Shown here one piece after another: positions 17,930 to 41,289 of a stretch of DNA of 60,369 bases. The notes beneath the pieces are model-generated. The model saw only the letters and a list, made by a program, of their open reading frames with translations. It was not told the origin of the DNA and did not search any database. The position numbers and the translations under genes are program-made. The DNA is from Gammaproteobacteria bacterium (GTDB lineage Bacteria; Pseudomonadota; Gammaproteobacteria; Steroidobacterales; UBA11654): assembly GCA_029242945.1 (NCBI GenBank), contig JAQWSZ010000009.1, forward strand, positions 1-60,369. Direction: 5' to 3'. Each line of letters begins with the position of its first letter. The stretch's first letter is position 1.

Positions 17930-17949
17930 TTTGGTAGTTTGAATAAATT

Positions 17950-19448: not shown

Positions 19449-19465
19449 TGAACTTCCTTTTAATA

Positions 19466-21043: not shown

Positions 21044-21140
21044 TTTTTTCCTTATTAATATTTTTTTCAAAGGAATGATTATATCCTTTGGATAAGTTGC
21101 ATGTTAAATTATTTGAAAATTTTTTTTACAAGAATCAAAG

Positions 21141-25194: not shown

Positions 25195-26424
25195 TCAAAG
25201 ATTGATCGCTTCTCCGATATTAAGTGGCACTATCTCTATCTCTTGATCTTTATTAATTGCCTCCAAACCTTCTGGAATAATTGCCCAAGAATTTGCTTCC
25301 CTGAAAGGGTTCAGTTTGAAGGATTCTTGTCCTTCTAAAATTATGACCTCTAACTTACCTTGATCATTTACTGTTGTTTTTGCTTTAGCAAAAAAACAGA
25401 ACTTTCTTGATTTTTTAAATTCCAATTGATTTACTGCAACTAGATAGTTTTCTTTTGCCTGTCCTTGCATTAATCGTATGGCATTGTTGACAAAAAAACG
25501 AAAGCCGACTGCTACTGATACTGGGTTTCCAGGTAAACCAAAGAGAATTTTTCCATCTGGTAATTTTGCCATTAATATTGGCTTTCCAGGTCTGATCCAG
25601 ACTTTATGGAATAATATTTCTGCACCCATATCAAGTAATACAGATGGCACAAAGTCAGCTTTTCCAGCAGAGACACCACCACTTGTAATAATAATGTCTG
25701 ATCCAGAATCTATACATTTTTTGATTTTATTTTTGATTTCACAAGGGTCATCTTTTGCATGGAGCTGATTGGTGCATTGTAGCCCTAATCTTTTGACGCA
25801 AGCTTCAATATAAGGCCCATTAGTATTGGGTATGCTTGATTCATTATTCCCATCTAATTCACTTCCAGTTGCAATAATGCCAATCTTAGGTGATTGGAAT
25901 ATTTGCACCTTATCAATACCATTCATCAATATTGCCATCAAGTTATATGGGTTGATGGAACTTCCTTTTTCTAAAATAATATCCCCAGGTAAGAAATCTT
26001 CTCCAGCTAGGCGAACATTTCTATCTTTTTTTATTTCTTCGTCAAGAATTAGAAATCTCTTATTATTCTCAGTAATAATTTTGGCTTGCTCTATGGGAAT
26101 GACCGCATCAAAACTTTTGGGCATCAATGCTCCTGTCATGATTTCAAAACTAACATCATTTTCATCCGAAGCAATAAATTTATCTCCAGCGTAGATAGTA
26201 TTTTTAATTTCAAAGCGTTTAGGATTATCTTTTGTTATCTCAATTGTTTCTTTGGTTTGAATTGCTACACCATCCATTGCAGAGTTAGAGAGAGCAGGCA
26301 CAGGCGATTTGGATACTAAGGTTTTTGCATTAATGCCAAAAGCCTGTTTAACATCAGTATCTTTTACTGCTAGCGAAGTCACATTTTTTTCTATAATATT
26401 TAATGCTTCTTTATAATTGATCAT
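25195..26424 (-). CDS. moeA: molybdopterin molybdotransferase
   Basis: NSAMDG, IMTGA.MP, ATGSEL, SGGVSAGKAD, RPGKP, GLPGNPVS. Confidence 0.93.
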   Translation of the reverse strand: MINYKEALNIIEKNVTSLAVKDTDVKQAFGINAKTLVSKSPVPALSNSAMDGVAIQTKETIEITKDNPKRFEIKNTIYAGDKFIASDENDVSFEIMTGALMPKSFDAVIPIEQAKIITENNKRFLILDEEIKKDRNVRLAGEDFLPGDIILEKGSSINPYNLMAILMNGIDKVQIFQSPKIGIIATGSELDGNNESSIPNTNGPYIEACVKRLGLQCTNQLHAKDDPCEIKNKIKKCIDSGSDIIITSGGVSAGKADFVPSVLLDMGAEILFHKVWIRPGKPILMAKLPDGKILFGLPGNPVSVAVGFRFFVNNAIRLMQGQAKENYLVAVNQLEFKKSRKFCFFAKAKTTVNDQGKLEVIILEGQESFKLNPFREANSWAIIPEGLEAINKDQEIEIVPLNIGEAINL

Positions 26425-26551
26425 GATTTATATATATTTTATTTGGAGTCTAAGCTTATTGTGCATTGTTTTAATGAGGGATGGAAAAATTTTTAAATTT
26501 AAAGCATAAGACCTTTTTAAGATAGAATTAATTAATAATTAGGTAACCGTA

Positions 26552-29302
26552 TTGACTAAGATTAATAGAAGAAATTTCTTACAAGGCTCAGCAGCAGCTG
26601 GACTTAGTCTTGGATTGCAATATGGATCTATGGAAAAAACATTTTCAAGCGAAACTTATCGCGGTTTCGAGGATCTCTATAGAAAAAAATGGACTTGGGA
26701 TAGAGTTGTAAGAGGAACGCACGGTACTAACTGTGCTGGCACTTGTGCCTTTAACGTATATATTAAGAATGGTGTTGTTTGGCGAGAAGAGCAACAAGGA
26801 CAATATGAACAATTGGGAGATGTTCCTGACTTTGGACCCAGAGGTTGTCAAAAAGGTATGCGTCATCATAAATATATGTATGGCAAGCAACGCATACTTT
26901 ATCCATTAAAAAGAACTGGTAAAAGAGGTGAAGGTAAGTGGGAAAGGATTAGTTGGGAACAGGCTACCACAGAGATTGCAGATAAGTTTCTTGATTACGC
27001 AATAGAATATAATCCTGAATGTATTTCTTATGGAAGCGGTACACAGATGTCTGTGAAAATGGCTTCCTTTTCTTCACATTTACGATTTGGCAATATTACG
27101 GGTGTTACTGTTCCTGAATTCTTTTCAGGTGTTGGAGATCTTCCCACCGGTTCATATATGACCTTAGGCCAAGTCTACACAGGCGATACATTTGCTTCTG
27201 TGTATAAAGCAAAATGTGTTTTAGTCTGGATGAGTAATCCAGCTGTGACACGAATACCTGATGCACACTTCTTTTGGGAGGCTCGTTATAATGGTACCCA
27301 GGTCATTTCAATTTCTCCTGAATTTACTCCTACAGCAATGCATTCCAGTATGTGGCTCAACCCGAAACCAGGGACAGATGCAGCCCTAGCTATGTCAATG
27401 GTCGGTGTGATGATCGATGAGAAACTCTATCAATCAGATTATATAAAAGAGCAAACTGATTTACCGCTTTTAGTAAGAACTGATACAAAAGAATTTTTAA
27501 GAAGAGAAGATCTATCACTCTATGGTTTACTGGCTGTTGATGATAATGTTTATTATATGTGGGATGAGGAGACAGATGCCATTGTACAGGCACCTGGGAC
27601 AGGGAGAGCTGATAAACCTATGGGGAGAGATAGGCGTAAGCATGGAACATTAGATCTTGGAAACATAAAGCCAATTTTAGAAGGAAGATGGAAGATTAAA
27701 ACATTGGATGGTGAAGTTGAAATCACCACAGTTTTCGAATTATTAAAAGAAGAATGCAAACAGTATACACCTGAAAAATCTTCCGAGATCACTGGGGTTA
27801 ATCCTGGCGTCATCAAAAAAACAGCTCGAGTTTTTGCAGATGCTCAACCAGCCATGATTTATGCAGGCTATGCTTCATGTAAATGGCTTCATGGTGATCT
27901 CTTACAAAGAGCAATGCTATTAATGTTAGCTCTAAGTGGAAGTACGGGTAAAGAAGGTGGCGGGCTACAAATAGCAAATGCACCCGTTTCTAGAGGAATA
28001 AATCAATTTGGTTTTTCTGATATTGGTCCTGCACTTCGACTAATTTCTGCTACCACATGGGATTATGATCACGGGAATATGAAGCAGTTGAATGAGAAGA
28101 TATACGGAAAGGATCTTGCTGAAACATTCGATCAATATTATAAAAAAAGTATCAGCGAAGATTGGTTCCCAGATTACAGCCAAAATGGCTATAAAATGGG
28201 AATATTTGCTGGAAACAATGGAGCCAACTGGAGAGCTACTGGAAGTCATTGGAGAAAAAATGCTTTGGAATCCCTTGAGGTTATTGTTTCGTTGGCACCC
28301 GACATGGGAATAACAGCACTTACCTCAGATTATGTTTTGCCAATAGCTCATCACTACGAAAGAAATGATTTAATGTTGCAATCAAGAGTGCCTTACTTGC
28401 AGGTCCTTAATGAAGCAGTGAGACCACTCGGTGAATCTGTAGATGACTGGGAAGCAAACAGGAGACTGGCTGAAGCTATCAGCATTAGAGCTAAAGAAAG
28501 AGGTATAAGGCCAATTAGAGATGTGGTTGATGGAAGGACGGTTAGAAGAGATTACACCAAGACGCTAGAGTTATATACAATGAATGGAAGACTTAAAAAT
28601 TCAACCGATGTTGCTCAATTTATCATCAATACTAGTCATGGACTTCCAAAAATTTCATTTGAAGAGTTATCCGAAAAAGGTATTGTTAGAGTGGATGGTT
28701 CGGATAACACAATGTGGGATAATGAGGACTCACCTTACCATACTGAAGTAGCAAAGAGTGTTAGAGACAAACATCCCTATGAAACATTTACAGGCAGGCA
28801 ACAGTTTTATATTGATCACGAATGGTTTATTGAATTTGAAGAGACGTTACCAACCTATAAGGAGCCTCTTGAAATCAAAGATTTTCCTATGAGAATGATG
28901 ATGGGACATGCACGTCATGGTATCCATAGTATGTGGAGGGATGACTCTTTACTTTTAAGTTTGCAGCGAGGCGAACCTGATATTTATATTAATCCAGATG
29001 ATGCAAAAGCAAGAGATGTTCTTGATGGAGACATGGTGAGAGTATTTAATATAGCAGGTGAATTTTTTGCTATGGCGCATGTCAGTTCATCGATCCAGCC
29101 TGGTATGCTCTTTATGTACCATGGATGGGATCCTAAATTATTTCAAAATGGGAAAAATTTTGGTGAAGTTATTCCAACTGGGGGATTGATTAAGCCCACT
29201 TCAATGGCCGGAGATTATGGGCATTTAGGTTATCAACCACTTGCATTCGCACCCAATCAAACTTATAAAGATTTTACTTGTGATTTTGAAAAATCAGCAT
29301 GA
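26552..29302 (+). CDS. type II DMSO-reductase-family Mo-bisMGD enzyme, alpha subunit (EbdA/S25dA-like), Tat-exported
   Basis: RRNFLQ Tat motif; EDLYRKKWTWD; FS0 motif HGTNCAGTC...PRGCQKG; candidate Mo-ligand Asp in VGDLPTG; TRIPDAHF..EARYNG; HARHGIHS; TTG start. Confidence 0.9.
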   Translation: MTKINRRNFLQGSAAAGLSLGLQYGSMEKTFSSETYRGFEDLYRKKWTWDRVVRGTHGTNCAGTCAFNVYIKNGVVWREEQQGQYEQLGDVPDFGPRGCQKGMRHHKYMYGKQRILYPLKRTGKRGEGKWERISWEQATTEIADKFLDYAIEYNPECISYGSGTQMSVKMASFSSHLRFGNITGVTVPEFFSGVGDLPTGSYMTLGQVYTGDTFASVYKAKCVLVWMSNPAVTRIPDAHFFWEARYNGTQVISISPEFTPTAMHSSMWLNPKPGTDAALAMSMVGVMIDEKLYQSDYIKEQTDLPLLVRTDTKEFLRREDLSLYGLLAVDDNVYYMWDEETDAIVQAPGTGRADKPMGRDRRKHGTLDLGNIKPILEGRWKIKTLDGEVEITTVFELLKEECKQYTPEKSSEITGVNPGVIKKTARVFADAQPAMIYAGYASCKWLHGDLLQRAMLLMLALSGSTGKEGGGLQIANAPVSRGINQFGFSDIGPALRLISATTWDYDHGNMKQLNEKIYGKDLAETFDQYYKKSISEDWFPDYSQNGYKMGIFAGNNGANWRATGSHWRKNALESLEVIVSLAPDMGITALTSDYVLPIAHHYERNDLMLQSRVPYLQVLNEAVRPLGESVDDWEANRRLAEAISIRAKERGIRPIRDVVDGRTVRRDYTKTLELYTMNGRLKNSTDVAQFIINTSHGLPKISFEELSEKGIVRVDGSDNTMWDNEDSPYHTEVAKSVRDKHPYETFTGRQQFYIDHEWFIEFEETLPTYKEPLEIKDFPMRMMMGHARHGIHSMWRDDSLLLSLQRGEPDIYINPDDAKARDVLDGDMVRVFNIAGEFFAMAHVSSSIQPGMLFMYHGWDPKLFQNGKNFGEVIPTGGLIKPTSMAGDYGHLGYQPLAFAPNQTYKDFTCDFEKSA

Positions 29303-29976
29303 ATGATTTATCGACAGCAATCAATTACGAAAGAGTATGCGATCAATCTTTAAGAAAAGTAGAAGAAACCGCTAAACCCAGAAGTAATCTATATACTTAT
29401 TTTTCTCTTTTGTTGGGTTCACCTCATGAATTAGTATTAGAATCTAAGATAAAATTCAATGACTCAATTTTGAAAGGGTTGCCGTATACTTTTGAAATCA
29501 GTGACTTAATTAAGGAATATAGTGAGACTGAAATCATTGATTTGAAGCGTCAGTATAGTGCTTTATTTGAAGTAGGCGATGAAGGGCCTCCAGCGCCAAT
29601 CAGAGAAGATCTATTTCTATCACAACCAGCAAAATTAAGAGAAGATTTGGTGCGTTTTTATGATTATTTTGGATACACTTTAAACGATGAGTTTCAATGG
29701 CAGATGGACCATCTGTCGATTGAGATTGAATTCATGCATTTTCTTATTTTTCAAGAACTAGAGTCAAACGATAATAAATTATCATTCCAGCTTGGCCAGT
29801 TAGATTTTTCAGAGAAGCATCTAGTGAATTGGATACCTGACTTGTCTGCTACAATTAATCGTCTAGGCAGTGGTGATATCTATTCTAAAATTGTTGTAGA
29901 ATTAAACAACTTTCTTTTAATCGATAATAATTGGCAAAAAGAAACAATTAATAGTATTCATAAAACGGGGAGTTAA
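29299..29976 (+). CDS. TorD/DmsD/EbdD-family Mo-enzyme maturation chaperone
   Basis: REDLVRFYDYFG, DHLSIEIEFM, F.EKHL.NW; ATGA overlap with the alpha gene. Confidence 0.85.
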   Translation: MNDLSTAINYERVCDQSLRKVEETAKPRSNLYTYFSLLLGSPHELVLESKIKFNDSILKGLPYTFEISDLIKEYSETEIIDLKRQYSALFEVGDEGPPAPIREDLFLSQPAKLREDLVRFYDYFGYTLNDEFQWQMDHLSIEIEFMHFLIFQELESNDNKLSFQLGQLDFSEKHLVNWIPDLSATINRLGSGDIYSKIVVELNNFLLIDNNWQKETINSIHKTGS

Positions 29977-29978
29977 GT

Positions 29979-30974
29979 ATGGGTCAAGTTGCAATGGTGA
30001 TTGATTTAAATAAGTGTATAGGTTGCCAAACCTGCACTACTGCTTGCAAGTCTTTATGGACAGATGAACCTGGTCAAGAATATATGCTCTGGAATAATGT
30101 TGAAACTAAGCCTGGTCCTGGGTATCCACGTTATTGGGAAGAAGGAGGAGGAGGTTGGGATGAACAAGGCAATCTCAATCGAGATGGTCTGATGCCTAAG
30201 AAGGAAGATCATGGTGGAGAAGTTCCTTTGAATCATGATGAAGTGTATTTCAAGGGCCTTGAGGTAAGATTGCAACAAGAAGAGCCCATGGCTAAAGGTA
30301 AGGGTGCAAATTGGGATGAAGATACAAGTTCAGGAGATTACCCTAATAATTACCATTTCTATTTACCAAGAATGTGTAATCATTGTACTAAGCCAGCATG
30401 TCTAGAAGCTTGTCCTGTAAGAGCTATTTATAAAAGAGAAGAAGATGGGGTTGTGCTTATTGATCAGGATAAATGTCAAGGCATTAGAGAATGCAATAAA
30501 GCATGTCCTTACGACAAAATATACTTTAATTATGTCACTGGAAAATCTCAGAAATGCATTTTTTGTTTTCCTAGATTGGAAGAAGGAGTCGCACCAGCGT
30601 GTGCAAGACAGTGTCCAGGAAGATTAAGATTTGTTGGTTATCTTGAAGATGAAAATGGACCAATCAATGAATTAGTTTATCAATGGAAGGTTGCTCTGCC
30701 TTTACATCCAGAATATGGAACCGATCCTAATGTTTTTTATGTACCTCCAATGTTGCCTCCAACGTTTGATGAAAAAGGTGAATTTGCTGATGAGCCTCGA
30801 GTTCCAACGGAATATCTTAGAAGTCTTTTCGGAGAAAATGTTGATGAAGCATTGATTACGATGCAGTATGAGATGGAGAAAAAACAAGAAGGTAAAGAAT
30901 CTAGATTAATGGATATCTTAATAGCAAAAGAATGGAAATCATTGTTCAGCATTCCTGATGTGAAGATTTATTAA
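29979..30974 (+). CDS. type II DMSO-reductase-family Fe-S beta subunit (EbdB/NarH-like)
   Basis: DLNKCIGCQTCTTACK, RMCNHC..PAC..ACP, KCQGIRECNKACPY (3Fe-4S type), KCIFC...CARQCPGR, LHPEYGT.PNVFYVPP. Confidence 0.92.
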   Translation: MGQVAMVIDLNKCIGCQTCTTACKSLWTDEPGQEYMLWNNVETKPGPGYPRYWEEGGGGWDEQGNLNRDGLMPKKEDHGGEVPLNHDEVYFKGLEVRLQQEEPMAKGKGANWDEDTSSGDYPNNYHFYLPRMCNHCTKPACLEACPVRAIYKREEDGVVLIDQDKCQGIRECNKACPYDKIYFNYVTGKSQKCIFCFPRLEEGVAPACARQCPGRLRFVGYLEDENGPINELVYQWKVALPLHPEYGTDPNVFYVPPMLPPTFDEKGEFADEPRVPTEYLRSLFGENVDEALITMQYEMEKKQEGKESRLMDILIAKEWKSLFSIPDVKIY

Positions 30975-31003
30975 TTAGTGAATAACTCTTAAGGAAACTT
31001 CAA

Positions 31004-32968
31004 ATGGAGCTTTCAAAAGGCCGAATTTTTTTAATTATGACATCGCTGGTCTTGTCTTCAGTAATGGCAAGTCTAGACTCGAGTTTTACTCCCATTGCCA
31101 TCCCAGACATGATCGATAAACTTGACTCAAGCACCAGTGAGGTGGTTTGGGTTGCCCTGGGATACTTAATTGCTGCAAGTGGACCAATGTTACTAGCTGC
31201 AAAAATGGCAGATGGTATTGGCCATGCAAGATTTTTCCAGATAGGTACATTGATTTATAGTCTTGCAATGATTGCATGTGCCTGGGCTCCTGATGCAAAC
31301 ACACTTATTGCAATCCGCTTTATCCAAGGTTTTGGTATGGCCTTATTTTTACCCACTACATTTGCAATTGCTACTGCCATGTATGGGCCAGAGAAAAGAG
31401 GAAGCGCACTTGGAATTCTTCAAGCAGCCAATGCAGTTGGCTTTGTTATGGGACCTGTTTTTGCTGGCTGGTTAATTGATGCTTATGATTGGACAGCAAT
31501 ATTCTGGTCTCGCATACCTTTCGCTATTCTGGCTATTTTATTGGCTTTTTTTGCCCTTGGTTTTAAGCATCCTTTTCAGTTCTCTGAAAGAAAGAAGACA
31601 TACGATTATCTTGGAGCAGTTTATTTAACGGTTGCATTATTTGGCATACTTTATGGATGTAATAAATTGCCAGTAGAGGATAATCATCTAGATCTTTCAA
31701 CTTGGATTATATTTGCACTTGGTTTTATTTTTTTTGTTTTCTTTATCAAACAGGAAAGCAAGCATAGTGATCCATTAATTGATCTGACTCTTTTTTCAAA
31801 TAGTAATGATTTTTCAAAAGCTTCAATAGCTTTTGCCTCTGTTTTTGCTAGTTTTCCTGTCTACCTTTTTATACTCCCAATTATTATGATTAGTGGTCTA
31901 GAGATGAAAGCTTGGGATGCAGGCCTTGCTTTAGGCTTGGCAGCTTTAGCAACTTTGCTAATTAGTCCAGTTGCTGGAAATCAGTCTGATAAAATTGGAC
32001 CTGGTAAATTATGTATGATGGGTGCTTTAATTACTGCTATCGGCTATCTTTGTCTTTTTCTAGTATCAGCTGATTCAACGGTGTTTTCAATATTGCCAGC
32101 TATGGCATTAATTGGAGCTGGAACAGGTTTATTCTTTTCTCCTAATAATAATTTAATGTTATCGAGCGCTCCTCCAGAAAGGGCAGGAATGGTGTCCGGA
32201 CTTTTTGGTGTTCTAAGACAATCAGGTTATGCTCTAGGCTTTGCTATTACTGCCAGTCTTTTTACTGCTATTCAAAATTATTTTGATCTTCAATGGGCTT
32301 ATTCTTCAATAGATCCCATGTCTCAAAGCTCAGCGTTAAGCATTACTGATATCTATCATCAAGGCAGTCAATGGTCTCCTGAAATGCTTGTTTTTATTTT
32401 GCATATTGGGGTTTTATTGTGCACAAGTATACTTATTATTACATTCATTAATTCACTACCGAAAATTCAACTCAATATTGCTAAACATTCTCTTATAGTT
32501 GCTTCTTCACTGCTTATTGCTTTTCTATCCATCGCTGTATTTAGTTTAAATGCACCTGGCTATCTTAAGAAAGATGACCTCTCAGCAAATCTTACTAATA
32601 ATGATAAAAATCCAATCAGTCCTTTTGGAATGTCATCCAGATCATTCAAAATTATCACCACTGCCAATGCTGAAAAAAATGATCAAACTGACAACAATAC
32701 AAGCAATGTTAATTATGACAGTCGATGTGTTTTTTGTCATGGTTCTAATTTGGAGGGTATACCCGGTTTAGGAGTCTCTATCAAAGACTCTATGTTTCTA
32801 AAGAAAATGAATGTAGATGAAATTATAATTTTTTTAAAAGAAGGGCGAATGTCTAATTCTACTGATAGCATATCTGGCGGCGTAATGCCTGGTTTTTCAT
32901 GGTTGCCTGATGAAGAGATTAAAGACATTGCAGTTTTTATAAAATCGGCTAGCAGTAACTCTGAATGA
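31004..32968 (+). CDS. DHA2-type MFS transporter fused to a C-terminal class I cytochrome c domain
   Basis: 14 MFS helices (RFIQGFG, GPVFAG, PLIDL.LF), an extra helix, an Asn/Asp-rich linker, then CVFCH (32726-32740) and GGVMPGF...EEIKDIAVFI. Confidence 0.85.
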   Translation: MELSKGRIFLIMTSLVLSSVMASLDSSFTPIAIPDMIDKLDSSTSEVVWVALGYLIAASGPMLLAAKMADGIGHARFFQIGTLIYSLAMIACAWAPDANTLIAIRFIQGFGMALFLPTTFAIATAMYGPEKRGSALGILQAANAVGFVMGPVFAGWLIDAYDWTAIFWSRIPFAILAILLAFFALGFKHPFQFSERKKTYDYLGAVYLTVALFGILYGCNKLPVEDNHLDLSTWIIFALGFIFFVFFIKQESKHSDPLIDLTLFSNSNDFSKASIAFASVFASFPVYLFILPIIMISGLEMKAWDAGLALGLAALATLLISPVAGNQSDKIGPGKLCMMGALITAIGYLCLFLVSADSTVFSILPAMALIGAGTGLFFSPNNNLMLSSAPPERAGMVSGLFGVLRQSGYALGFAITASLFTAIQNYFDLQWAYSSIDPMSQSSALSITDIYHQGSQWSPEMLVFILHIGVLLCTSILIITFINSLPKIQLNIAKHSLIVASSLLIAFLSIAVFSLNAPGYLKKDDLSANLTNNDKNPISPFGMSSRSFKIITTANAEKNDQTDNNTSNVNYDSRCVFCHGSNLEGIPGLGVSIKDSMFLKKMNVDEIIIFLKEGRMSNSTDSISGGVMPGFSWLPDEEIKDIAVFIKSASSNSE

Positions 32969-34281
32969 GCCTTATTTCTGTTGAGAATAAACCCAGTGCA
33001 TTATCGGCATGGTATGCAGTCATCGTATTGCTATTTGCCTACGTTTTATCGTTTGTAGATAGAATAATTATGAGTCTTCTTGTGATTCCTATTCAAAAAG
33101 ATTTAGATATTTCAGATACTCAGATGGGACTTCTTATGGGCCTTGCTTTTGCAATATTTTATACTGTAGTAGGTATACCAATAGCTAGATTATCTGATGT
33201 AAAAAGTAGGAAAATTATTGTCTCTATAGGTATTTTTCTATGGAGTATTATGACAGCTGTTTGCGGGCTTGCTAGAAGCTTTTTGGAGTTATTTTTAGCA
33301 AGAATAGGAGTTGGTGTGGGTGAAGCAACACTCTCACCGGCGGCTTATTCTATGATTGCTGACTATTTTCCTGAAAATAAGTTAGGCAAAGCCATTGCCG
33401 TTTATCAGTCTGGAGCACTCTTTGGTAGCGGTATTGCCTTTATTATTGGAGGAGCGATTGTTGGTTTGATTGTCAATTCCAGTGCTACATCATTGCCTTT
33501 CTTAGGAGAGCTTCAACCTTGGCAATTGGCATTCATTATAGTAGGACTTCCTGGTGTTTTAATGGCTCTTGTAATGTTAAGTGTGAAGGAGCCCAAAAGA
33601 ACAGGAATTAAAAAGGATCTTGGGACATCGGTTACTATAAAAGATGCAGTCAGATATATGGTTAAAAATTCGAAAGTGTATCTTTCAGTTTTTATAGGAT
33701 TCAGTATGCTTGCAATTCCTATTACGACTATTTTTACTTGGTATCCAACTTATCTACAAAGAATTCATGATCTTACAATAGGCGAGAGTGGAAAAATACT
33801 AGGATTAATTCTATTTTTTCTTTCAAGTTCAGGAGTCTTTTTTGGTGGTTGGTTAGTTGATTTTTTAAAACGAAGAAATTATCAAGATAGTTTTTTTCGA
33901 GTGGGTTTGATTGCAGCAATCACTCCAGTACCGTTTACTCTTTTTGTGTCATCAATGTCAGATATAGATGCTACGATAATCCTATTGTGCCCATTTATTT
34001 TCCTTGCCAGTATGCCTCTTGCTATTGGTCCAATTGTACTTCAAATTATTTCACCTAATCAATTGAGAGCACAAACAGGTGCAATTTATATGTTATTTAT
34101 GAATTTATTGACAGCAGCTATTGCTACTTCAGGGATTGGTTTTATTACCGATTATATTTTTGAAAATCCTTTAGATGTGGGGCAGTCTATTATGATTGTT
34201 AATATTGTTTCTGCCCCTGTTGCTTTTTTGGCTCTATCTTATGGTTTATTTCATTACAACAAAACATTAACAAAAGAGTAA
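32965..34281 (+). CDS. MFS transporter, spinster-like
   Basis: SFVDR.I.SLLV.PI..DL.ISDTQ.GLL.G.AF, RIGVGVGEA.LSP.AYS.IADYFP; ATGA overlap with the upstream gene. Confidence 0.9.
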   Translation: MSLISVENKPSALSAWYAVIVLLFAYVLSFVDRIIMSLLVIPIQKDLDISDTQMGLLMGLAFAIFYTVVGIPIARLSDVKSRKIIVSIGIFLWSIMTAVCGLARSFLELFLARIGVGVGEATLSPAAYSMIADYFPENKLGKAIAVYQSGALFGSGIAFIIGGAIVGLIVNSSATSLPFLGELQPWQLAFIIVGLPGVLMALVMLSVKEPKRTGIKKDLGTSVTIKDAVRYMVKNSKVYLSVFIGFSMLAIPITTIFTWYPTYLQRIHDLTIGESGKILGLILFFLSSSGVFFGGWLVDFLKRRNYQDSFFRVGLIAAITPVPFTLFVSSMSDIDATIILLCPFIFLASMPLAIGPIVLQIISPNQLRAQTGAIYMLFMNLLTAAIATSGIGFITDYIFENPLDVGQSIMIVNIVSAPVAFLALSYGLFHYNKTLTKE

Positions 34282-34357
34282 ATATCTACTATGATTAATG
34301 GCTAGCCTTTAAAGAAATTGAGCGGGCTTAATAATAACGAAAGAGGAGATTTTGAAT

Positions 34358-34990
34358 ATGTCAGATGAATCAACACAAGAAAACTATGCTGGTGTTTGGG
34401 ACACAGGTCTAGGTTTTGGGAAAAAGTCAGCACTTATTGTTATAGATCTATTGCAAGGTTATACGACCGAGGGTTCTGCATTGTATGCACCAGGAGTCAT
34501 CGATTGTGTAGCACAGATGCCAGACATATTAGCTTTAGCAAGATCTAAAGAGGTTCCAGTCATACATACAAGAGTTTTGTATACACCACCTGATTATCCA
34601 GAAGGCGGTATTTGGATTAAAAAAGCCCCTGTACTCAAAGATCTTGTTTTGGGTAATCCTTATGCAGAGTTTTGTGAAGGCGTCGAACCTGCTGAAGGTG
34701 AACTAGTAATTGTTAAGCAATATGCCAGTGCCTTTTTTGGAACTTCATTGGTTGCAACACTAAATGGATTAGATGTTGACACACTTATTATTACAGGCTG
34801 CACAACTTCTGGTTGCATTAGAGCTACAGCTGTTGATTGCGTTCAACATGGATTTAGACCCATTTGTGTAAGAGAGTGTATCGGAGATAGGGCTGAGGGA
34901 CCGCATGAAGCTAATTTATTTGACATCAATGCCAAGTATGGAGATGTAATAGGTAAGGATGTAGCAATGGATTATCTCAATAATTTATAA
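34358..34990 (+). CDS. isochorismatase-family cysteine hydrolase (N-carbamoylsarcosine/maleamate amidase-like)
   Basis: LIVID, KQYASAFFGT, GCTTSGCIRATAVD (Asp-Lys-Cys triad), KYGDV; GAGGAG RBS. Confidence 0.9.
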   Translation: MSDESTQENYAGVWDTGLGFGKKSALIVIDLLQGYTTEGSALYAPGVIDCVAQMPDILALARSKEVPVIHTRVLYTPPDYPEGGIWIKKAPVLKDLVLGNPYAEFCEGVEPAEGELVIVKQYASAFFGTSLVATLNGLDVDTLIITGCTTSGCIRATAVDCVQHGFRPICVRECIGDRAEGPHEANLFDINAKYGDVIGKDVAMDYLNNL

Positions 34991-35025
34991 ACTGTTTTTA
35001 ATTAATTAAGTAAGAGGAATTTAGA

Positions 35026-35949
35026 ATGAGCGATTTAACACAAAGTAAACATTATGATTATATTCCGATCATCGATCGTGAACCTTTCAAGTTGCCTGAT
35101 GGGGCAAGAGTTGCAGTGATGCCTTATCTTAATATTGAGCATTTTCCAGCAGCAATAGCTGGAACATCCTTAATACCTGGCACAGCTGGTTTTTCTCCAG
35201 ATCCTTTAAATTATGGTTGGAGAGACTATGGCAATAGAGTAGGGTTATGGAGAATGAAAGAACTTATGGATAAACTGGGGATGAGAGCAACGGTTTGCTT
35301 AAATTCAGAAATTATTAGAGAGTATCCTAGAATTGTTGAAGAAGCATTAGCCAGTAATTGGGCTTTTATTGGTCATGGTATCAATAATGCACCAGCAAAT
35401 TTTATTGGAAATGCTCCTGATGGCCAAGGAGGCCATACTCCATTAAGTGAAGATAGGGAAAGAGAAATTATTAGCACGGTTTGTAATTCAATGGAAGAAG
35501 CCATTGGAAGGAAAACAAAGGGTTGGTTAAGTCCTTTTTTAACACACACCGATAATACCCCCAGAATTCTTGAAGAAAATGGGGTTGAATATTTATGTGA
35601 TTACACAGCTGATGATCATCCTTTTAAGTTTAATACACCAAATAACAACCTCATTGCAGTTCCTTATACAGTTGAATTGAACGATATACCTGCTTTCCTA
35701 GGACACTCCGGAGTTGGTGTTTCTTCTGAAGCTTTTGGAGATATGATCGTTGACCAGTTTGATGTTCTTTATGAAGAAGGTGCTACCAATGCTAGATGTA
35801 TGCCAATTTGTTTGCATACCTTTCATGTTGGTCAGCCTAATAAATTCAAACATCTGAAAAGAGCCTTTGAATATATTGCTAGCCATGATGATGTATTGCT
35901 TACAACCGGCGATGACATCAATGATTGGTATAGAGCACAATATATGTAA
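35026..35949 (+). CDS. polysaccharide-deacetylase-fold hydrolase, PuuE allantoinase-like
   Basis: NIEHF, RDYGNRVG.WR, GHG, GWLSP, DDHP, PYTVELND, LH.FHVGQP. Confidence 0.85.
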   Translation: MSDLTQSKHYDYIPIIDREPFKLPDGARVAVMPYLNIEHFPAAIAGTSLIPGTAGFSPDPLNYGWRDYGNRVGLWRMKELMDKLGMRATVCLNSEIIREYPRIVEEALASNWAFIGHGINNAPANFIGNAPDGQGGHTPLSEDREREIISTVCNSMEEAIGRKTKGWLSPFLTHTDNTPRILEENGVEYLCDYTADDHPFKFNTPNNNLIAVPYTVELNDIPAFLGHSGVGVSSEAFGDMIVDQFDVLYEEGATNARCMPICLHTFHVGQPNKFKHLKRAFEYIASHDDVLLTTGDDINDWYRAQYM

Positions 35950-36025
35950 ACAAAAAAGTCCAAGTTTATTTGGACTTAGTACAATAAACATGGGTAGTTT
36001 ATAGACTACCCATGAAAAAAAACCC

Positions 36026-37297
36026 ATGAAAAATAAGCTTCTTTATTTAACTGTCATGATCTGCTTGGTATTCAGTAATGAGTATCTGTTAAGTCAGCCT
36101 ATGCCGCCAAAATTACCCGATGTGGGACCAACGGTCATGAGATTACCAACATTACTTAAACAATCACCCATTAATTTAAAAGTACCAAAAGGTTTTAAAG
36201 TAGATCTACTTGTAGATAACTTGAGTTCACCAAGATGGTTGCTAGTGCTTCCTAATGACAATATTTTGGTAGCACAATCAAGAACAGAATCGTTACCAGG
36301 TTTGCCTCTTGAGACATTGAAGATACTATCAAAAATGAATCTTTTTGGCCCTTCACCTAATAATATAATAGAAGTCAATTATAGCGAAGGCAAGTATCAG
36401 TCAAAATCTATAATCACTGACTTAAACCAACCTTTTGGAATGATTTATTTTCAAGAACATCTCTATATTGCTAATACCGATTCAATTTTAAAATTTGATT
36501 ATGAAGATTTTAAGATTAACTCAGCACCTCAGAAAATTATAGATATACCAGCAGGACCTCCTAATAATCATTGGACTCGAAATATTATCTTAAATAAAGA
36601 TTTTGATAAAATATTAATCTCAGTTGGTTCTGGAACGAATGTAAATGAAGAAGGAACGGATAATAATGAACGTGCATCCATCTGGGAAATAAATCTAGAT
36701 GGAACTGGAAAAAAATTGTTTGCAACTGGACTCAGAAATCCAGTAGGAATGGCCTTTGAACCAATTAGTGAAAAGCTTTGGACAACAGTGAATGAAAGAG
36801 ATGGGTTGGGCGAATTTTTGCCACCTGATTATTTCACTGAAGTGGTTGAAGGTGAATTCTATGGTTGGCCATATGTTTATTATGGAATTTATCCTGACCC
36901 AAGTCAGTTAAAACTCAACCCCTTAAAAGTAGAAAAAGCACTAACACATTCAAGAGTACCAGATTTACCTGTGGGTTCTCATACGGTTCCTTTGGGCTTG
37001 TTGTTTCATAGTGGAAAAAATATTAACCCTAAATACAAAAATGGAGCTTTTATTGCAAGGAGGGGTGGCGTTTCTACATCCAAGTTAGTTGGATACGATG
37101 TTATATTTATACCGTTTGAAGATGGTTATCCCACAGGAGAGATAGAGGTTTTTCTTTCAGGTTTTATTGCCGATATGGCCAAAGGGGAAATTCATGGTAG
37201 GCCTGTTGGTATAACCGAAATGAATGATGGCTCTATTCTTATTGCAGATGATGTAGGCGGGAAAATATGGCGTATTAGCTATAGTGAAGACAATTAA
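36026..37297 (+). CDS. PQQ-dependent sugar/sorbosone dehydrogenase family protein
   Basis: Signal peptide; VPKGF, NNHWTR, SVGS..N, GLRNPVG, VNERD.LG, YGWPY, GRPVG, ADD.GG.IWR. Confidence 0.88.
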   Translation: MKNKLLYLTVMICLVFSNEYLLSQPMPPKLPDVGPTVMRLPTLLKQSPINLKVPKGFKVDLLVDNLSSPRWLLVLPNDNILVAQSRTESLPGLPLETLKILSKMNLFGPSPNNIIEVNYSEGKYQSKSIITDLNQPFGMIYFQEHLYIANTDSILKFDYEDFKINSAPQKIIDIPAGPPNNHWTRNIILNKDFDKILISVGSGTNVNEEGTDNNERASIWEINLDGTGKKLFATGLRNPVGMAFEPISEKLWTTVNERDGLGEFLPPDYFTEVVEGEFYGWPYVYYGIYPDPSQLKLNPLKVEKALTHSRVPDLPVGSHTVPLGLLFHSGKNINPKYKNGAFIARRGGVSTSKLVGYDVIFIPFEDGYPTGEIEVFLSGFIADMAKGEIHGRPVGITEMNDGSILIADDVGGKIWRISYSEDN

Positions 37298-38444
37298 GAC
37301 CAATCTACTAATAGCAGGAGGCGGACTCGCTTCTTGCATACTCGCTTATAGAATTAAATCATTGTCATCTGATATCGATTTTTTAGTAGTTGAGAAAGAT
37401 CATCAGTTGGGAGGTAATCATAATTGGTCCTTTCACACCACCGATATTAGTAATTCTCAATTTGAATGGCTCTCCCCTTTAATAACCTTTCGTTGGAATG
37501 AACACGATGTTGTTTTTCCCCAGTACTCTAGAACTATTAAGGGAGGATATAACACTATTACTTCCATCGATATGCATGAAAAATTGATGCCTCTCATTGG
37601 CAATCATGTTCTTTTTGATAACGCTATCAATTATTTAGATAATAAAGTAGCAAAGCTGGATGATGGCACAGTAATTGAAGCGGATATAGTTATCGATGCA
37701 ATGGGCAACTCACCTTCTAAAGGTATTACTATTGCGTATCAAAAATTTTTAGGAATTGAGATTGAGCTAAATAAAACTCATAACATAGAAAGACCTATAT
37801 TGATGGATGCTGCAGTTGAGCAAATTGATGGTTACCGATTTATGTATACGCTACCTTTTTCTGAAAAGAAATTATTAGTCGAGGACACAAGATACAGCGA
37901 TAGTTCGCAAATAAACGAAGAAGAATACCAAGCTCAGATTATGAAGTATCTTGATATGAAAGGCTGGCAAGACTGTAAAATTATAAAAAAAGAAAAAGGA
38001 GTGCTGCCCATCATCTTGAATGGTAATTATTCTAATGTGTTTAATAAGGAAATTGGAATGATTGGAATGAAAGCACTCTTATGTCATCCAACGACAGGTT
38101 ACTCATTGCCTCATGCTGTTAAGATTGCTGATCTTATTTCCAGTAAAATTTACAATAAAAGTAATAAGATTAATGATGATATTAAGCAATATTCAATCCA
38201 ATCATGGAAAAAAGACGAATTTTTTAGAGTATTAAATAGAATGCTCTTTTGGGCATGCGAGCCTAGCTCTAGATATAAAGTCTTCCAGCGTTTTTATACA
38301 TTACCTGAATCTTTGATAGCTAAGTTTTATTCCAGAGAGTATTTATTTATCGAGAAAATAAAAATGATGATTGGAATGATGGATGGCTTTAAGCCACCCA
38401 TAAAAATTAGTAAAGCACTAAAGGCATTATATAGGAATGAATAA
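37284..38444 (+). CDS. crtY: lycopene beta-cyclase
   Basis: GGGLA, GGNHNWSFH, QKFLG.E, LMDA.V.Q.DGYRF.Y.LP, EDTRYS, HPTTGYSLP, LNRMLF. Confidence 0.92.
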   Translation: MKTIKTNLLIAGGGLASCILAYRIKSLSSDIDFLVVEKDHQLGGNHNWSFHTTDISNSQFEWLSPLITFRWNEHDVVFPQYSRTIKGGYNTITSIDMHEKLMPLIGNHVLFDNAINYLDNKVAKLDDGTVIEADIVIDAMGNSPSKGITIAYQKFLGIEIELNKTHNIERPILMDAAVEQIDGYRFMYTLPFSEKKLLVEDTRYSDSSQINEEEYQAQIMKYLDMKGWQDCKIIKKEKGVLPIILNGNYSNVFNKEIGMIGMKALLCHPTTGYSLPHAVKIADLISSKIYNKSNKINDDIKQYSIQSWKKDEFFRVLNRMLFWACEPSSRYKVFQRFYTLPESLIAKFYSREYLFIEKIKMMIGMMDGFKPPIKISKALKALYRNE

Positions 38445-39927
38445 GAAGGTTGCTATTATAGGAAGCGGGTTTGGTGGTTTGGCACTAGCTATCAGGCTTC
38501 AAGCTTCAGGTCTGGATACTGTAATTTATGAAAAGAGGGATAAACCAGGAGGCAGAGCATATTTTTACAAAGAAAAGGGTTTCCATTTCGATGCTGGACC
38601 TACAGTTATTACAGCGCCTCATATTTTTCAAGAGCTCTTTGATTTAACCAATAAAAAAATGCAAGACTACATAGAGCTTATTCCAATTGATCCTTTCTAT
38701 CGATTGATTTGGCCTGATGGCGAAGTGTTTAATTATAACTCTGATATGGATGAACTAAATTCTCAAATCCATAAACTGAATCCAAAAGATGTTTATGGTT
38801 ATAAGAAATTTTTAAAATATTCAAATGCAGTCTTCGAGGAAGGCTATATAAAAATGGTTGATCACCCATTTCAATCCATCTGGAGCATGATTAAAGTTGC
38901 CCCTCAATTGATTCTTCTGCAAAGCTTTAGATCAGTCTATTCAATGGTGTCTAAATATATTAAGCATCCAAAACTAAGACAAGCTTTCAGTTACCACACT
39001 TTATTATTAGGTGGCAGCCCTTATTCTAGCTCTGCTATTTATTCTTTGATTCATGCACTAGAGCATAAGTGGGGAGTATGGTTTTCAAAAGGAGGAACAA
39101 GCACACTCATTGCAGGCTTGACTCAGTTATATAAAGATTTGGGCGGCACTTTACATCTCAATTGTGAAGTAAAAAGTATTAAGACAAATAAAAATAATGA
39201 AATACAATCTATTATTATTCACAATGGAGAAGAAATTAAGGTGTCTGCTGTAGCAAGCAACGCTGATATCTACCACACTTATAATGAATTGCTTTCTGAG
39301 AATAAAATAGCTCAGAGGAAAACAAAGATACTAAAGAGAAAAAAATTTAGCCCTTCTCTATTTGTGTTGCATTTTGGTCTACGAAAAAAACATCCAAAGC
39401 TAGCACATCACACAATATTCTTTGGTCCGAGATGGAAAGAATTACTCAAGGATATATATAAGAATGGGGTCTTACCCGAGGATAACGCCCTTTATTTGCA
39501 CTCGCCTTCAGTGACTGATTCTTCTATGGCACCTGAGGGTTGTTCAACTTATTACGCTCTTGCCGTTGTTCCTAATTTAGGTAAATTAGATATTGATTGG
39601 TCAATGGAACAGGACAGATATAAGAATATTATCTATCAACAGCTTGAGGAGACTTGTTTGCCTAATTTGAGAGAGGACCTAGTTGTAGATCGAGTCTTTA
39701 CACCTTTTGATTTTAAAAAAGAGCTCAATGCTTATAAAGGCGCCGCCTTTTCCATGGAACCTTTACTTGTTCAAAGTGCTTATTTTAGAATACATAATAG
39801 TGATCAGAAAATTAAAGGTCTCTATTTTACAGGAGCTGGCACACATCCGGGTGCAGGAGTTCCTGGAGTGGTTAATTCTGCGAAAGCCACTGCAAAAATC
39901 ATAATGGACAGGTTAGATCATGGATAA
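38437..39927 (+). CDS. crtI: phytoene desaturase
   Basis: GSGFGGLA, RDKPGGRAY, FDAGPTVIT, GAGTHPGAGVPGVV.SAK. Confidence 0.95.
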   Translation: MNKKVAIIGSGFGGLALAIRLQASGLDTVIYEKRDKPGGRAYFYKEKGFHFDAGPTVITAPHIFQELFDLTNKKMQDYIELIPIDPFYRLIWPDGEVFNYNSDMDELNSQIHKLNPKDVYGYKKFLKYSNAVFEEGYIKMVDHPFQSIWSMIKVAPQLILLQSFRSVYSMVSKYIKHPKLRQAFSYHTLLLGGSPYSSSAIYSLIHALEHKWGVWFSKGGTSTLIAGLTQLYKDLGGTLHLNCEVKSIKTNKNNEIQSIIIHNGEEIKVSAVASNADIYHTYNELLSENKIAQRKTKILKRKKFSPSLFVLHFGLRKKHPKLAHHTIFFGPRWKELLKDIYKNGVLPEDNALYLHSPSVTDSSMAPEGCSTYYALAVVPNLGKLDIDWSMEQDRYKNIIYQQLEETCLPNLREDLVVDRVFTPFDFKKELNAYKGAAFSMEPLLVQSAYFRIHNSDQKIKGLYFTGAGTHPGAGVPGVVNSAKATAKIIMDRLDHG

Positions 39928-40852: not shown

Positions 40853-41289
40853 ACCCCTAATTTCAAGTCTTTTGGTACATAGAGGAAGCCAAATGAAGAT
40901 GCAAAATTTTTTTCAGACGTAGAGTGATGAAGATGATGAGCACGAATCATTCTTTTCATATAACGACTCTTGAATTTATATTTAATTTTAATTCTTCGAT
41001 GTACGATTATATCGTGAAAGATAAAATATGCAGGACAGTAAGAGGCAATACCAACACCGACCCAAAGTAGAGCTGTATCATTATGATAGCCAAAATAAAT
41101 ACAGAGTATCGAAGGGATAGCAAATAAGACTGCAAACCAATCATTCTTTTCAAACATACCTTCTCTAGGCCTATGATGTGATTTATGCAGATTCCATAAA
41201 AATCCATGCATAACATACTTATGTGTATAGAACGCAACTGCTTCCATTATGCAAAAAACAGTAAGGATAATTAAACAGTTTAAAAACAT
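40849..41289 (-). CDS. crtZ: beta-carotene 3-hydroxylase
   Basis: HKYVMHG, HKSHH, FEKND, FHD..VH.R, AHHLHH, SFGFL His boxes; convergent with crtB. Confidence 0.93.
   Translation of the reverse strand: MFLNCLIILTVFCIMEAVAFYTHKYVMHGFLWNLHKSHHRPREGMFEKNDWFAVLFAIPSILCIYFGYHNDTALLWVGVGIASYCPAYFIFHDIIVHRRIKIKYKFKSRYMKRMIRAHHLHHSTSEKNFASSFGFLYVPKDLKLGV

Follow-up and report, generated by a model that had tools for sequence, protein, structure and literature searches.

Known type II molybdoenzymes and related systems

Type II molybdoenzymes are mostly described as alpha-beta-gamma complexes, and perchlorate reductase is an exception. Perchlorate reductase (PcrAB) is taken here to be an alpha-beta enzyme without a haem-b gamma subunit, with c-type cytochromes as redox partners and a NarJ-type chaperone. 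In chlorate and selenate reductases, a soluble cytochrome c supplies the electrons. The DHA2/EmrB permeases are known mostly as exporters, and the MarR-family regulator EmrR together with emrAB is a classical arrangement.

The locus examined here lies in a window of 60,369 nucleotides, which is the whole stretch of DNA analysed, from a gammaproteobacterial genome of 1,477,266 bases in 52 contigs (91.69% complete). The alpha, beta and chaperone families TIGR03479, TIGR03478 and TIGR03482 are common to this locus and to EbdABC, DdhABC, SerABC, ClrABC and periplasmic Nxr, and both are periplasmic systems. Those enzymes have a gamma subunit, whereas the family of the source genome lacks an EB_dh gamma (20/20) and its alpha and chaperone score below the curated cut-offs. 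The module is a real, not previously described variant of the type II molybdoenzymes, and the pathway proposed for it in the initial annotation is partly supported. No description of an MFS–cytochrome c fusion or of the alpha1 clade was found in full-text searches covering the main text of non-subscription papers, among them PMC6050957 and PMC10100899.

Gene organization of the locus

All eight genes of the initial annotation were present in the region 25195–35949. Coordinates, strands and domains agreed with its description of moeA as divergent from a tight same-strand run from alpha to the PuuE-like gene. The molybdopterin molybdotransferase gene moeA (25195..26424, minus strand) has MoeA_N, MoCF_biosynth and MoeA_C domains and scored 263.7 bits with NF007960, below the cut-off. 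By the gene coordinates, a divergent intergenic region of 127 bp (26425..26551, unstranded) separates it from alpha; moeA is also upstream and divergent in the host family and in several Chromatiales/Gammaproteobacteria loci. Alpha and the chaperone gene overlap by 4 bases, the chaperone and beta genes are 2 bp apart, and 29 bp separate beta from the fusion gene. The stop of the fusion gene overlaps the start of the second MFS gene by 4 bases, followed by spacings of 70 bp and 35 bp to the two hydrolase genes. The run had been taken to end at 35949; it goes on through a GSDH-like gene, crtY, crtI and crtB up to 40852. Because the genome is compact and the run reaches the carotenoid genes, tight same-strand order and adjacency are weak evidence here.

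Parts of the locus were present in RNA-library contigs from four marine studies. Marine RNA-library contigs bridged chaperone and beta in three runs and beta and the fusion gene in two, which is consistent with co-transcription and short of proof. Among the contig pieces listed, none joined the second MFS gene to the isochorismatase-family gene across the intervening gap, and the four runs left the bin 33852–34175 without cover; such contigs cannot show absence. The scanned region held 70 promoter-like sites, a number not above the 63.3 ± 8.2 obtained in shuffles, and the site at 34267–34295 is one of these 70. Since the site count was not above the shuffles, no promoter is claimed for the moeA/alpha region.

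Enzyme subunits and absence of a gamma subunit

The alpha gene (26552..29302, plus strand) encodes a Tat-signal Mo-bisPGD catalytic subunit of the Asp-ligated type II branch, clade alpha1, with TAT_signal, Molybdopterin and Molydop_binding domains. The Tat motif RRNFLQ occupies residues 6–11 (PF10518, E 2.2e-4, 21.5 bits, slightly below the cut-off of 22.7). The FS0 motif HGTNCAGTC (H/C-x3-C-x3-C) was found, and its H57, C61 and C65 were invariant in 16/16 sequences. D196, in the FFSGVGD stretch, aligned with the Asp of the WYGD stretch of PcrA, which we take to be the Mo ligand. Alpha is thus like PcrAB (PDB 4ydd, 5e7o) in Tat signal, FS0 motif and position of the Asp ligand. Full-length alpha scored 900.8 bits with TIGR03479, below the curated cut-off of 984.75 and outside the trusted set. 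Compared with solved structures, a set without the SerA, DdhA and ClrA sequences, alpha was closest to PcrA (582.6 bits, residues 35–909), followed by EbdA (415.5) and NarG (299). The best 120 database relatives were 56–94% identical to alpha; few were named, with generic or pipeline-assigned names. Judged by these sequences, the alpha clade is a large, unnamed putative sister clade among type II molybdoenzymes.

The NarJ/EbdD-type assembly chaperone (29299..29976, plus strand) matched Nitrate_red_del PF02613 with 53.1 bits; TIGR03482 (89.2 bits) and EbdD (66.9 bits) both scored below cut-off. Beta, a four-cluster iron-sulfur subunit (29979..30974, plus strand), belongs to type II by its TIGR03478 score of 505.8 bits, above the cut-off of 480.7. 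It was the sole beta-like gene found in the source genome by tblastn, and its identity within the host family was 92–98%. The gene order alpha-chaperone-beta is unlike that of PcrAB.

The absence of a gamma gene, claimed for this locus at the outset, was confirmed at the locus, in the source genome and in the host family. A profile search of the source genome (91.69% complete) gave no match to PF09459 EB_dh, TIGR03477 or PF02665 NarI. PF09459 was likewise without a match in 20/20 genomes of the host family, a sample of kin and of draft genomes, and it was not found in three of five further carrier genomes; the three include a 2.79-Mb record whose title is chromosome 1. The control of the DOMON profile search matched nothing, and the absence of gamma rests on PF09459, TIGR03477 and PF02665. 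The initial annotation also gave type II enzymes a haem-b gamma subunit, a premise that is incomplete: PcrA, the closest solved relative, belongs to an alpha-beta enzyme with c-type cytochromes as partners.

The MFS–cytochrome c fusion

The gene after beta (31004..32968, plus strand; MFS_1 and Cytochrom_C domains, TIGR00711) encodes a DHA2-type permease (14 + 1 helices) that carries a tethered cytochrome c at its C-terminus. The AlphaFold2 model (pLDDT 79.6, pTM 0.75) showed 14 helices, a 15th helix at residues 492–514, a low-confidence linker of about 45 residues (523–566) and then a cytochrome fold. A Kyte-Doolittle count gave 14 overlapping peaks and was too crude, and the model was used in its place. 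Matches in the ESM Atlas carried generic MFS names only.

The cytochrome domain, residues about 567–654 (32702..32965, plus strand; PF00034, PF13442), scored 26.5 bits with PF00034, above the cut-off of 21.3. Its CxxCH motif (C575, C578, H579) and M628-P629 were invariant in 16/16 aligned fusion sequences. The domain is a class I monohaem cytochrome c with predicted haem binding, and the nearest solved chains were of the CcoP/cyt cy type. As in cyt cy-type carriers, a flexible linker joins the class-I monohaem domain of the fusion to a preceding membrane helix. The cyt cy anchor is a single helix, whereas the anchor of the fusion is a well-conserved 14-helix permease plus one helix, and the fusion gene, unlike the cyt cy type, is tied to one enzyme operon. 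The proposed partner also differs from that of PcrAB, which is a multihaem PcrC: here it is a monohaem cytochrome c on an MFS permease. The fusion had been called the only haem protein; this holds within the locus, but other c-type cytochromes are encoded elsewhere in the genome.

The same 16-sequence alignment showed a conserved LPVEDNH stretch after the seventh helix, which on our reading of the model would lie in a periplasmic loop. A complex prediction of beta (18-row alignment) with residues 535–654 (16 rows) and haem, run without controls, gave scores of 0.20 and 0.29, the mark being 0.32, and weighs neither way on binding.

Conservation of the four-gene module

The conserved unit consists of four genes: Tat-alpha, chaperone, beta and the MFS–cytochrome c fusion. 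The synteny of these genes was investigated from both ends, and their order proved to be conserved well outside the close relatives, the outcome asked for by the synteny check in the initial annotation. The alpha-centred survey covered 34 alpha1-clade loci outside the host family, of which 6 end too early and 28 are informative. The fusion followed the enzyme genes in 18/28, a free cytochrome c came straight after beta in 3/28, and neither was present in 7/28. The fusion-centred survey covered 32 distant (<60% identity) metagenome loci, 3 of them without upstream sequence. Alpha, chaperone or beta was directly upstream of the fusion in 27 of the 29 informative loci; in the other two (L163, L164) enzyme genes were absent within 5.3–6 kb upstream. 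According to the records, carriers outside the host family belong to Polyangiaceae, Marinimicrobia, Alphaproteobacteria and Steroidobacteraceae and come from surface ocean, lake and river.

Three Chromatiales loci carry a free orthologue of the fused cytochrome c domain straight after beta, at a spacing given as 3 bases; in L045 this orthologue has 108 residues and a signal peptide. Among solved chains, the free orthologue matched a CcoP/cyt cy chain best. Since the free orthologue stands right after beta in Chromatiales, the haem is tied to the enzyme and not to the permease. In genome G034, the fusion (50% identical) adjoins a MarR gene, and alpha-chaperone-beta lies some 90 kb away within that contig; this split arrangement shows that the link between enzyme and fusion is not obligate. 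In the alpha tree, every row scored as fusion (26) and every free-cytochrome locus (3) fell, like alpha of the source genome, in a single 37-row subclade (support 99); two fusion loci (L069, L108) were not placed, and L049, a fusion carrier, was scored 'none' by the distance limit.

TonB-dependent receptors follow the module in several lineages but belong to different clusters and are not counted as part of it. An arsenic role for the Marinimicrobia neighbours was rejected: one is a symporter of the bile-acid:sodium type, another a PutP-like symporter and the third a generic methyltransferase, and all score below the curated Acr3 and ArsM cut-offs.

Proposed function and alternatives

On balance, the module is probably one in which a tethered cytochrome c stands in place of gamma, with catalysis beside transport. 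The extra helix would place cytochrome c in the periplasm, the site of c-type cytochrome maturation, where it would be beta's first redox partner in place of gamma. The enzyme would most likely oxidise a small periplasmic substrate in an aerobic, streamlined marine gammaproteobacterium. Electrons would pass from Mo to FS0, the beta clusters, the tethered haem c and a haem-copper oxidase; one COX1 and several c-type cytochromes of an aerobic chain were found in the source genome. The permease, as importer or exporter, would carry the substrate of this reaction, or its product, through the inner membrane, and the fusion would keep catalysis and transport side by side. The initial annotation had described a module that oxidises outside, imports and hydrolyses inside. 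The absence of gamma, the synteny and the tie between haem and enzyme support it, whereas the adjacency of the amidases and second MFS and import as the default do not.

The fuller form of that pathway, in which an N-heterocycle or cyclic ureide is hydroxylated outside, the product is imported by the fusion or the second MFS, and ring opening by the PuuE-like protein is followed by carbamoyl or amide removal inside, is possible but doubtful. It depends on three genes downstream of the fusion. The second MFS (32965..34281, plus strand; MFS_1) had been labelled 'spinster', a label without support: its best curated match was the anion:cation symporter model TIGR00893 (140.6 bits, below cut-off). 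It is absent in the sister genus (L016), and in Chromatiales homologues with 43–52% identity are found 1–1.2 kb downstream of the free cytochrome gene; it is apparently an add-on in the source lineage. The isochorismatase-family cysteine hydrolase (34352..34990, plus strand; PF00857) belongs to the N-carbamoylsarcosine-amidase/maleamate-amidase subgroup. Its closest solved relative was N-carbamoylsarcosine amidohydrolase (176.5 bits, residues 19–211, full length), and TTSGC, the stretch with the active-site Cys, was kept. The polysaccharide-deacetylase-fold hydrolase (35026..35949, plus strand; PF01522, TIGR03212) is a distant relative of allantoinase PuuE.

As a ring-opening and N-carbamoyl/amide-cleaving pair, the two amidases are chemically sensible. 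They resemble PuuE and the creatinine/hydantoin routes, which combine N-carbamoylsarcosine amidase with a ring-opening amidohydrolase, and their link to a Mo enzyme is lineage-specific. The PuuE-like score, however, is far below the cut-off (117.6 against 424.6 bits with TIGR03212), and with PuuE (3cl6, 79.1 bits) and a related unnamed chain as closest solved relatives (79–80 bits) the protein is a relative by fold only. The two genes are also paired in G034 and in L077/L103, where they lie 6–7 kb from a paralogous alpha2. L128 has an additional, third amidohydrolase (Amidohydro_3, 611 aa) that separates the pair from the second MFS. Around alpha2, C-N hydrolases, MFS genes and a small cytochrome c are common, but reading these neighbours as hydantoinase plus carbamoylase was rejected: they resemble prolidase/ochratoxin-amidase and formamidase/aliphatic amidase instead.

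The distribution of these genes was investigated in a 400-genome sample of the class. The fusion, alpha at ≥55% identity (at least 55%) and the PuuE-like gene at ≥72% (at least 72%) each occurred in 2/400, namely G000 and G034 in every case, and in G034 these genes are spread over four separate loci. Against this, the co-occurrence amounts to one independent genome of the same order. Amidases were adjacent or within 10 kb in 0/34 alpha1 loci outside the host family. In the host family, conservation extends over the entire neighbourhood and takes in unrelated genes at its flanks, and the continuation of the same-strand run into the carotenoid genes also weakens the adjacency. As members of the module, then, the second MFS and the amidases have their presence at the locus and a weak co-occurrence link in their favour, but they adjoin it only in the host family. 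A more limited role is tentatively proposed: the host family may have gained the anion-symporter-like MFS and the amidase pair, a ring-opening PuuE-like hydrolase with an N-carbamoyl/amide cysteine hydrolase, and the pair might release nitrogen from an imported product.

A reductase acting on a high-potential oxyanion or oxide such as (per)chlorate, selenate, nitrate or iodate, with electrons running from bc1 to the tethered cytochrome c and the MFS handling the anion, is unlikely. The 582.6-bit match to PcrA and the presumed use of c-type cytochromes by the gamma-free PcrAB speak for it; that the closest solved relative is a reductase was counted against the oxidase-type reading of the module. 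The aromatic residues of PcrA beside the Mo-ligand Asp are nevertheless not kept. PcrA F-Y-D-W-Y-G-D corresponds to F-F-S-G-V-G-D in alpha, and the Trp in which entries 4ydd and 5e7o differ from each other aligned with Asn476 or a gap; in the PcrAB structure, the Tyr and Trp concerned form part of an aromatic gate at the active site. The chlorite dismutase family PF06778 gave 0 matches in the source genome (91.69% complete). According to the records, carriers are surface-ocean, lake and river bacteria, and the source genome has an aerobic oxidase. PMC6050957 gives the NarG/NxrA pattern as Y-4x-D-11x-Q(N/M); alpha has F-4x-D, and V comes after its Q at +11, so that the pattern as written there is unmatched.

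It is equally improbable that the DHA2 permease, controlled by a MarR regulator, pumps out a toxic or reduced compound for immediate oxidation by the periplasmic enzyme next to it. The fusion scored 232 bits with TIGR00711 efflux_EmrB, above the cut-off of 230.2. It has the 14 helices of DHA2 (EmrB/QacA) and, in other lineages, nearby MarR genes; the 15th helix and the periplasmic cytochrome c go beyond that family. Six loci (Polyangiaceae, four Marinimicrobia-type and one Alphaproteobacteria) have a MarR-family gene immediately before alpha, and in G034 one adjoins the lone fusion. Taken as sequence evidence, the EmrB/DHA2 score and the MarR genes before the module in 6 loci would fit efflux better than uptake, and import by the fusion permease, as first annotated, is not the default reading in a family known mostly for exporters. 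Against export and detoxification, the locus in the source genome has no MarR gene, no substrate or producing pathway was identified, and the importer-type MFS genes and amidases of the host family point the other way. No EmrA-type adaptor was seen adjoining the fusion in the loci examined.

A redox-coupled transporter would be the boldest version of the tethered-cytochrome module, and it is quite improbable. Electron flow from alpha-beta to the tethered haem would gate or drive the permease, and oxidation outside and carriage of the product would form one cycle; conserved stretches in the LPVEDNH loop and in the long loop before helix 14, both periplasmic on our reading of the model, would then serve as the docking face.

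That the fusion is an unrelated transporter lying there by chance, with alpha-beta using a soluble cytochrome c encoded elsewhere, is very improbable: the genome has other c-type cytochromes and the fusion stands alone in G034, L163 and L164, but the adjacency recurs across phyla in both surveys and the free orthologue directly follows beta in three loci.

Significance

According to the records, the carriers are common aquatic bacteria, namely small-genome marine Gammaproteobacteria, Marinimicrobia, Alphaproteobacteria and Steroidobacteraceae. The Chromatiales form with free cytochrome c and the split arrangement in G034 are natural controls. The substrate, once found, would explain a molybdenum demand in surface-water heterotrophs, and would also probe whether a tethered haem can join catalysis and transport. 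Redox-coupled transport, if true, would be a mode of transport coupling without described precedent.

Gene Organization of the Operon

Genes were assigned from the open reading frame list and from Pfam and NCBIfam scans, and every gene named in the initial annotation was found in place. Next to moeA (25195–26424, minus strand), the plus strand carried alpha, a Tat-signal molybdopterin subunit (26552–29302; TIGR03479, 900.8 bits, below the cut-off of 984.75); a NarJ/EbdD-type chaperone (29299–29976); the four-cluster subunit beta (29979–30974; TIGR03478, 505.8 bits, above the cut-off of 480.7); an MFS permease with a C-terminal cytochrome c, called the fusion here (31004–32968; TIGR00711 efflux_EmrB, 232 bits, above 230.2); a second MFS permease (32965–34281); an isochorismatase-family hydrolase (34352–34990); and a distant PuuE relative (35026–35949; TIGR03212, 117.6 bits against a cut-off of 424.6). 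The alpha translation contained RRNFLQ and the FS0 motif HGTNCAGTC, and the fusion contained CVFCH and, further on, MPGF. The label "spinster" for the second permease was backed by no scan; the best curated match was the anion:cation symporter TIGR00893, below its cut-off. The proposed same-strand run was present but did not end at 35949, continuing through a GSDH-like gene, crtY, crtI, and crtB to 40852.

The carotenoid genes at 37284–41289 lay in this run directly after the module and amidase genes and encoded a lycopene cyclase, a phytoene desaturase-type oxidase, and a phytoene synthase; a fatty-acid-hydroxylase-family gene within the set was on the opposite strand. A PQQ-dependent dehydrogenase (PF01011, 689.8 bits) was found at 42427–44448. 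Additional C–N hydrolase and oxidase genes were close to the module at 15443–21070, 5–11 kb upstream of the operon, where a TonB-dependent receptor, an Amidohydro_1 protein (490 residues), and a FAD_binding_4 oxidase were encoded.

Parts of 26400–36100 were present as contigs in four RNA-labelled runs from four marine studies. The pieces bridged chaperone/beta (three runs), beta/fusion (two runs), and PuuE-like/GSDH-like genes (three runs); contigs of this kind are no proof of one continuous transcript and may also derive from carried-over DNA.

Conservation of the Gene Order

The order alpha-chaperone-beta-fusion was kept in all 15 loci fetched from the family, the close kin genomes. Synteny in the family says little, because unrelated flanking genes were kept too. 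A genome collection was scanned with a 16-sequence alignment, and 80 loci were kept and mapped by tblastn. Of these, 14 belonged to the family and 34 others carried an alpha of 60–70% identity; six of the 34 stopped too early to judge, leaving 28 informative loci. The fusion followed the enzyme genes in 18 loci, a cytochrome c match alone took its place in three (Chromatiales), and neither was found in seven. By record title, the 18 fusion loci came from Polyangiaceae, Neomarinimicrobiota/Marinimicrobia, Alphaproteobacteria, Rhodospirillaceae, and Steroidobacteraceae. At locus L045, a free cytochrome c of 108 residues with a signal peptide began 3 bases past the beta stop codon and shared motifs with the fused domain; a rhomboid gene, a homologue of the second MFS permease, and a TonB-dependent receptor came after it.

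A FastTree tree of 74 alpha sequences was divided into two clades with a support of 100 each. All 26 fusion-scored rows and all three free-cytochrome loci grouped within a single 37-row subclade (support 99). Among the 18 loci with the fusion, L069 and L108 were absent from the tree, and L049, which carries the fusion, was scored "none" by the distance limit of the script. The labels "Bacteroidetes bacterium" (L049) and "Klebsiella pneumoniae" (L059) are probably wrong, since these rows sat among Marinimicrobia and Steroidobacteraceae.

Metagenomes were scanned with the fusion alignment, and 80 loci were kept, 48 family-like (at least 72% identity) and 32 distant. Three distant loci had no upstream sequence. 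Alpha, chaperone, or beta was directly upstream of the fusion in 27 of the 29 informative loci, a count that overstates independence as many contigs were near-duplicates. In four of the 27 (L170–L173), the chaperone was followed by the fusion without beta; at L163 and L164, enzyme genes were not found within 5.3–6 kb upstream. The synteny proposed in the initial annotation was thus kept outside the family in both the alpha-centred and the fusion-centred scans. In a class-wide sample of 400 genomes (one not scored), the fusion was rare, occurring in the genome of the window and in one other, G034. The G034 fusion (50% identity) adjoined a MarR gene, and alpha-chaperone-beta lay about 90 kb away on the same contig.

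Several variants were observed. In four Marinimicrobia-type loci (L047, L048, L049, and L051), a MarR-family gene was directly upstream of alpha, and conserved same-strand genes downstream of the fusion encoded a TonB-dependent receptor, a 362-residue protein without a family match, and a 196-residue cytochrome c, with a DUF3386 protein next in L047 and L051. Alphaproteobacteria-type contigs without an intervening beta showed alpha-chaperone-fusion (L053 and L170–L173) or alpha-fusion (L066); the MAG of L053 encoded paired alpha and beta of the other clade at a separate locus (L074). In the Steroidobacteraceae locus L070, which has no fusion, a PvdO-like protein of the formylglycine-generating-enzyme fold (14440–15381; NF051459, 211.6 bits, below cut-off) followed beta. 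The fusion gene matched in two frames or partially in L050 (14496–16392) and L108 (12717–13967), which could reflect a frameshift, a pseudogene, or an assembly error.

Search for a Gamma Subunit

The genome of the window comprised 1,477,266 bases in 52 contigs and was 91.69% complete. The initial annotation held that a haem-b gamma subunit was missing, and EB_dh (PF09459), TIGR03477, and NarI (PF02665) each gave no match in this genome, while controls matched. The search was extended to 20 family genomes to get past this incompleteness, and EB_dh was found in none. EB_dh was also absent from three of five other module-carrying genomes, including a 2.79-Mb record titled chromosome 1. The other two, a Marinimicrobia and a Polyangiaceae genome, had EB_dh matches inside open reading frames of 528 and 649 residues on contigs other than that of the module. 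The premise that type II enzymes have such a subunit is incomplete, since PcrAB itself is not known to have a gamma.

Properties of the Fusion Protein

C575, C578, H579, M628, and P629 were invariant in the 16-sequence alignment. Identity to distant members was 51–66% in the MFS part and 28–44% in the cytochrome part; this better conservation argues for a functional permease that would do more than serve as an anchor. The AlphaFold2 model (mean pLDDT 79.6, pTM 0.75) showed 14 MFS helices, a 15th helix (492–514), a low-confidence linker (523–566), and a small helical domain. As maturation of c-type cytochromes takes place outside the cytoplasm, the 15th helix is predicted to place the cytochrome c domain in the periplasm. 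CcoP/cyt cy-type domains were nearest to the free orthologue of the fused cytochrome c.

The genome of the window had one COX1 gene and further c-type cytochromes; one cytochrome c domain match was about 150 bases from COX1, in a separate 365-residue frame. Cytochrome c domains also lay within long open reading frames of 700 and 634 residues (C15:55058–55279 and C37:24790–25023), and other enzyme-cytochrome fusions may exist in this genome.

Identity of the Alpha Subunit

The top solved-structure match of alpha was the perchlorate reductase PcrA (582.6 bits, residues 35–909), followed by ethylbenzene dehydrogenase alpha (415.5), NarG (299), and Kuenenia NxrA (146). Alpha was ruled out as PcrA by altered residues beside the conserved Asp (F-F-S-G-V-G-D, whereas PcrA has F-Y-D-W-Y-G-D), by loss of the Trp that differs between 4ydd and 5e7o (aligned with Asn476 or a gap), and by the missing chlorite dismutase, a family with no match in the 91.69% complete genome. 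The Nxr/Nar pattern given in PMC6050957 was, in the form written there, not matched by alpha.

A protein search with 8,000 scored candidates gave 3,546 alpha relatives at E ≤ 1e-50. The best 120 had 56–94% identity, and the majority had no name. Among these 120, generic names were "molybdopterin-dependent oxidoreductase" and "DMSO reductase family type II enzyme molybdopterin subunit", and two carried the pipeline label [quoted passage not shown]. In the main text of the open-access articles searched, a description of the fusion or of the alpha clade was not found.

Amidases and the Alpha Paralogue

The best match of the isochorismatase-family protein was N-carbamoylsarcosine amidohydrolase (176.5 bits over the full length, with TTSGC retained), ahead of maleamate-amidase-type chains. 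The PuuE-like protein most resembled allantoinase PuuE and a related chain without a name (79–80 bits). Judged by these matches, the pair would suit a route in which a ring is opened and a carbamoyl or amide group is then removed.

The link of the amidases to the enzyme was weaker than the initial annotation assumed. Within 10 kb, these amidases were found at none of the 34 loci outside the family that carry an alpha of the window's clade. Four observations favoured a link. The pair lay 6–7 kb from a paralogous alpha in L077 and L103 (identities of 80% and 68–70%), and an Amidohydro_3 gene sat between the second MFS permease and the pair in L128. In the 400-genome class sample, a close PuuE-like gene occurred in three genomes at E ≤ 1e-60 (one, G424, just 48% identical), and an alpha of at least 55% identity in two (two candidates scored per genome). 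Close PuuE-like gene, fusion, and this alpha coincided in the same two genomes. In G034, the pair was adjacent (66% and 72% identity), away from both alpha types and the fusion. With G034 a single genome from the same order, this co-occurrence would serve as a lead rather than a test.

The genome of the window also had an alpha paralogue of 56% identity (C27:48644–51370; locus L111, 8630–11386, minus strand) with the Tat motif, the FS0 motif, and the Asp. No beta or chaperone was beside it, and tblastn found only one beta in the genome; the beta and chaperone encoded in the operon may serve the paralogue too. Its neighbours encoded a DUF4437/cupin protein, Amidohydro_2, a CoA ligase, a DSBA-like protein, Amidohydro_1 (prolidase/ochratoxin-amidase type), an MFS permease, and a formamidase-like CN-hydrolase. 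In other genomes, the clade of the paralogue showed CN-hydrolase-alpha-beta-MFS or a small cytochrome c nearby. Across the wider alpha family, C–N hydrolases, MFS permeases, and monohaem cytochromes c are thus recurrent neighbours, a pattern that fits an organic nitrogen substrate but points to no single one.

Proposed Function

The reading with the most support, to which we give slightly better than even odds, is that of a four-gene module whose transporter-tethered cytochrome c takes the place of gamma. The enzyme more likely runs in the oxidative direction and hands electrons to the aerobic chain, because record titles of the carriers point to open-water or fresh-water samples, a haem-copper oxidase and other c-type cytochromes are encoded in the genome, and reductase signatures are missing. 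For the permease, efflux would be favoured by its DHA2 score and by neighbouring MarR genes, and uptake by the amidase context. The initial annotation went further and proposed periplasmic oxidation, import, and intracellular hydrolysis. This full pathway is possible but rather improbable.
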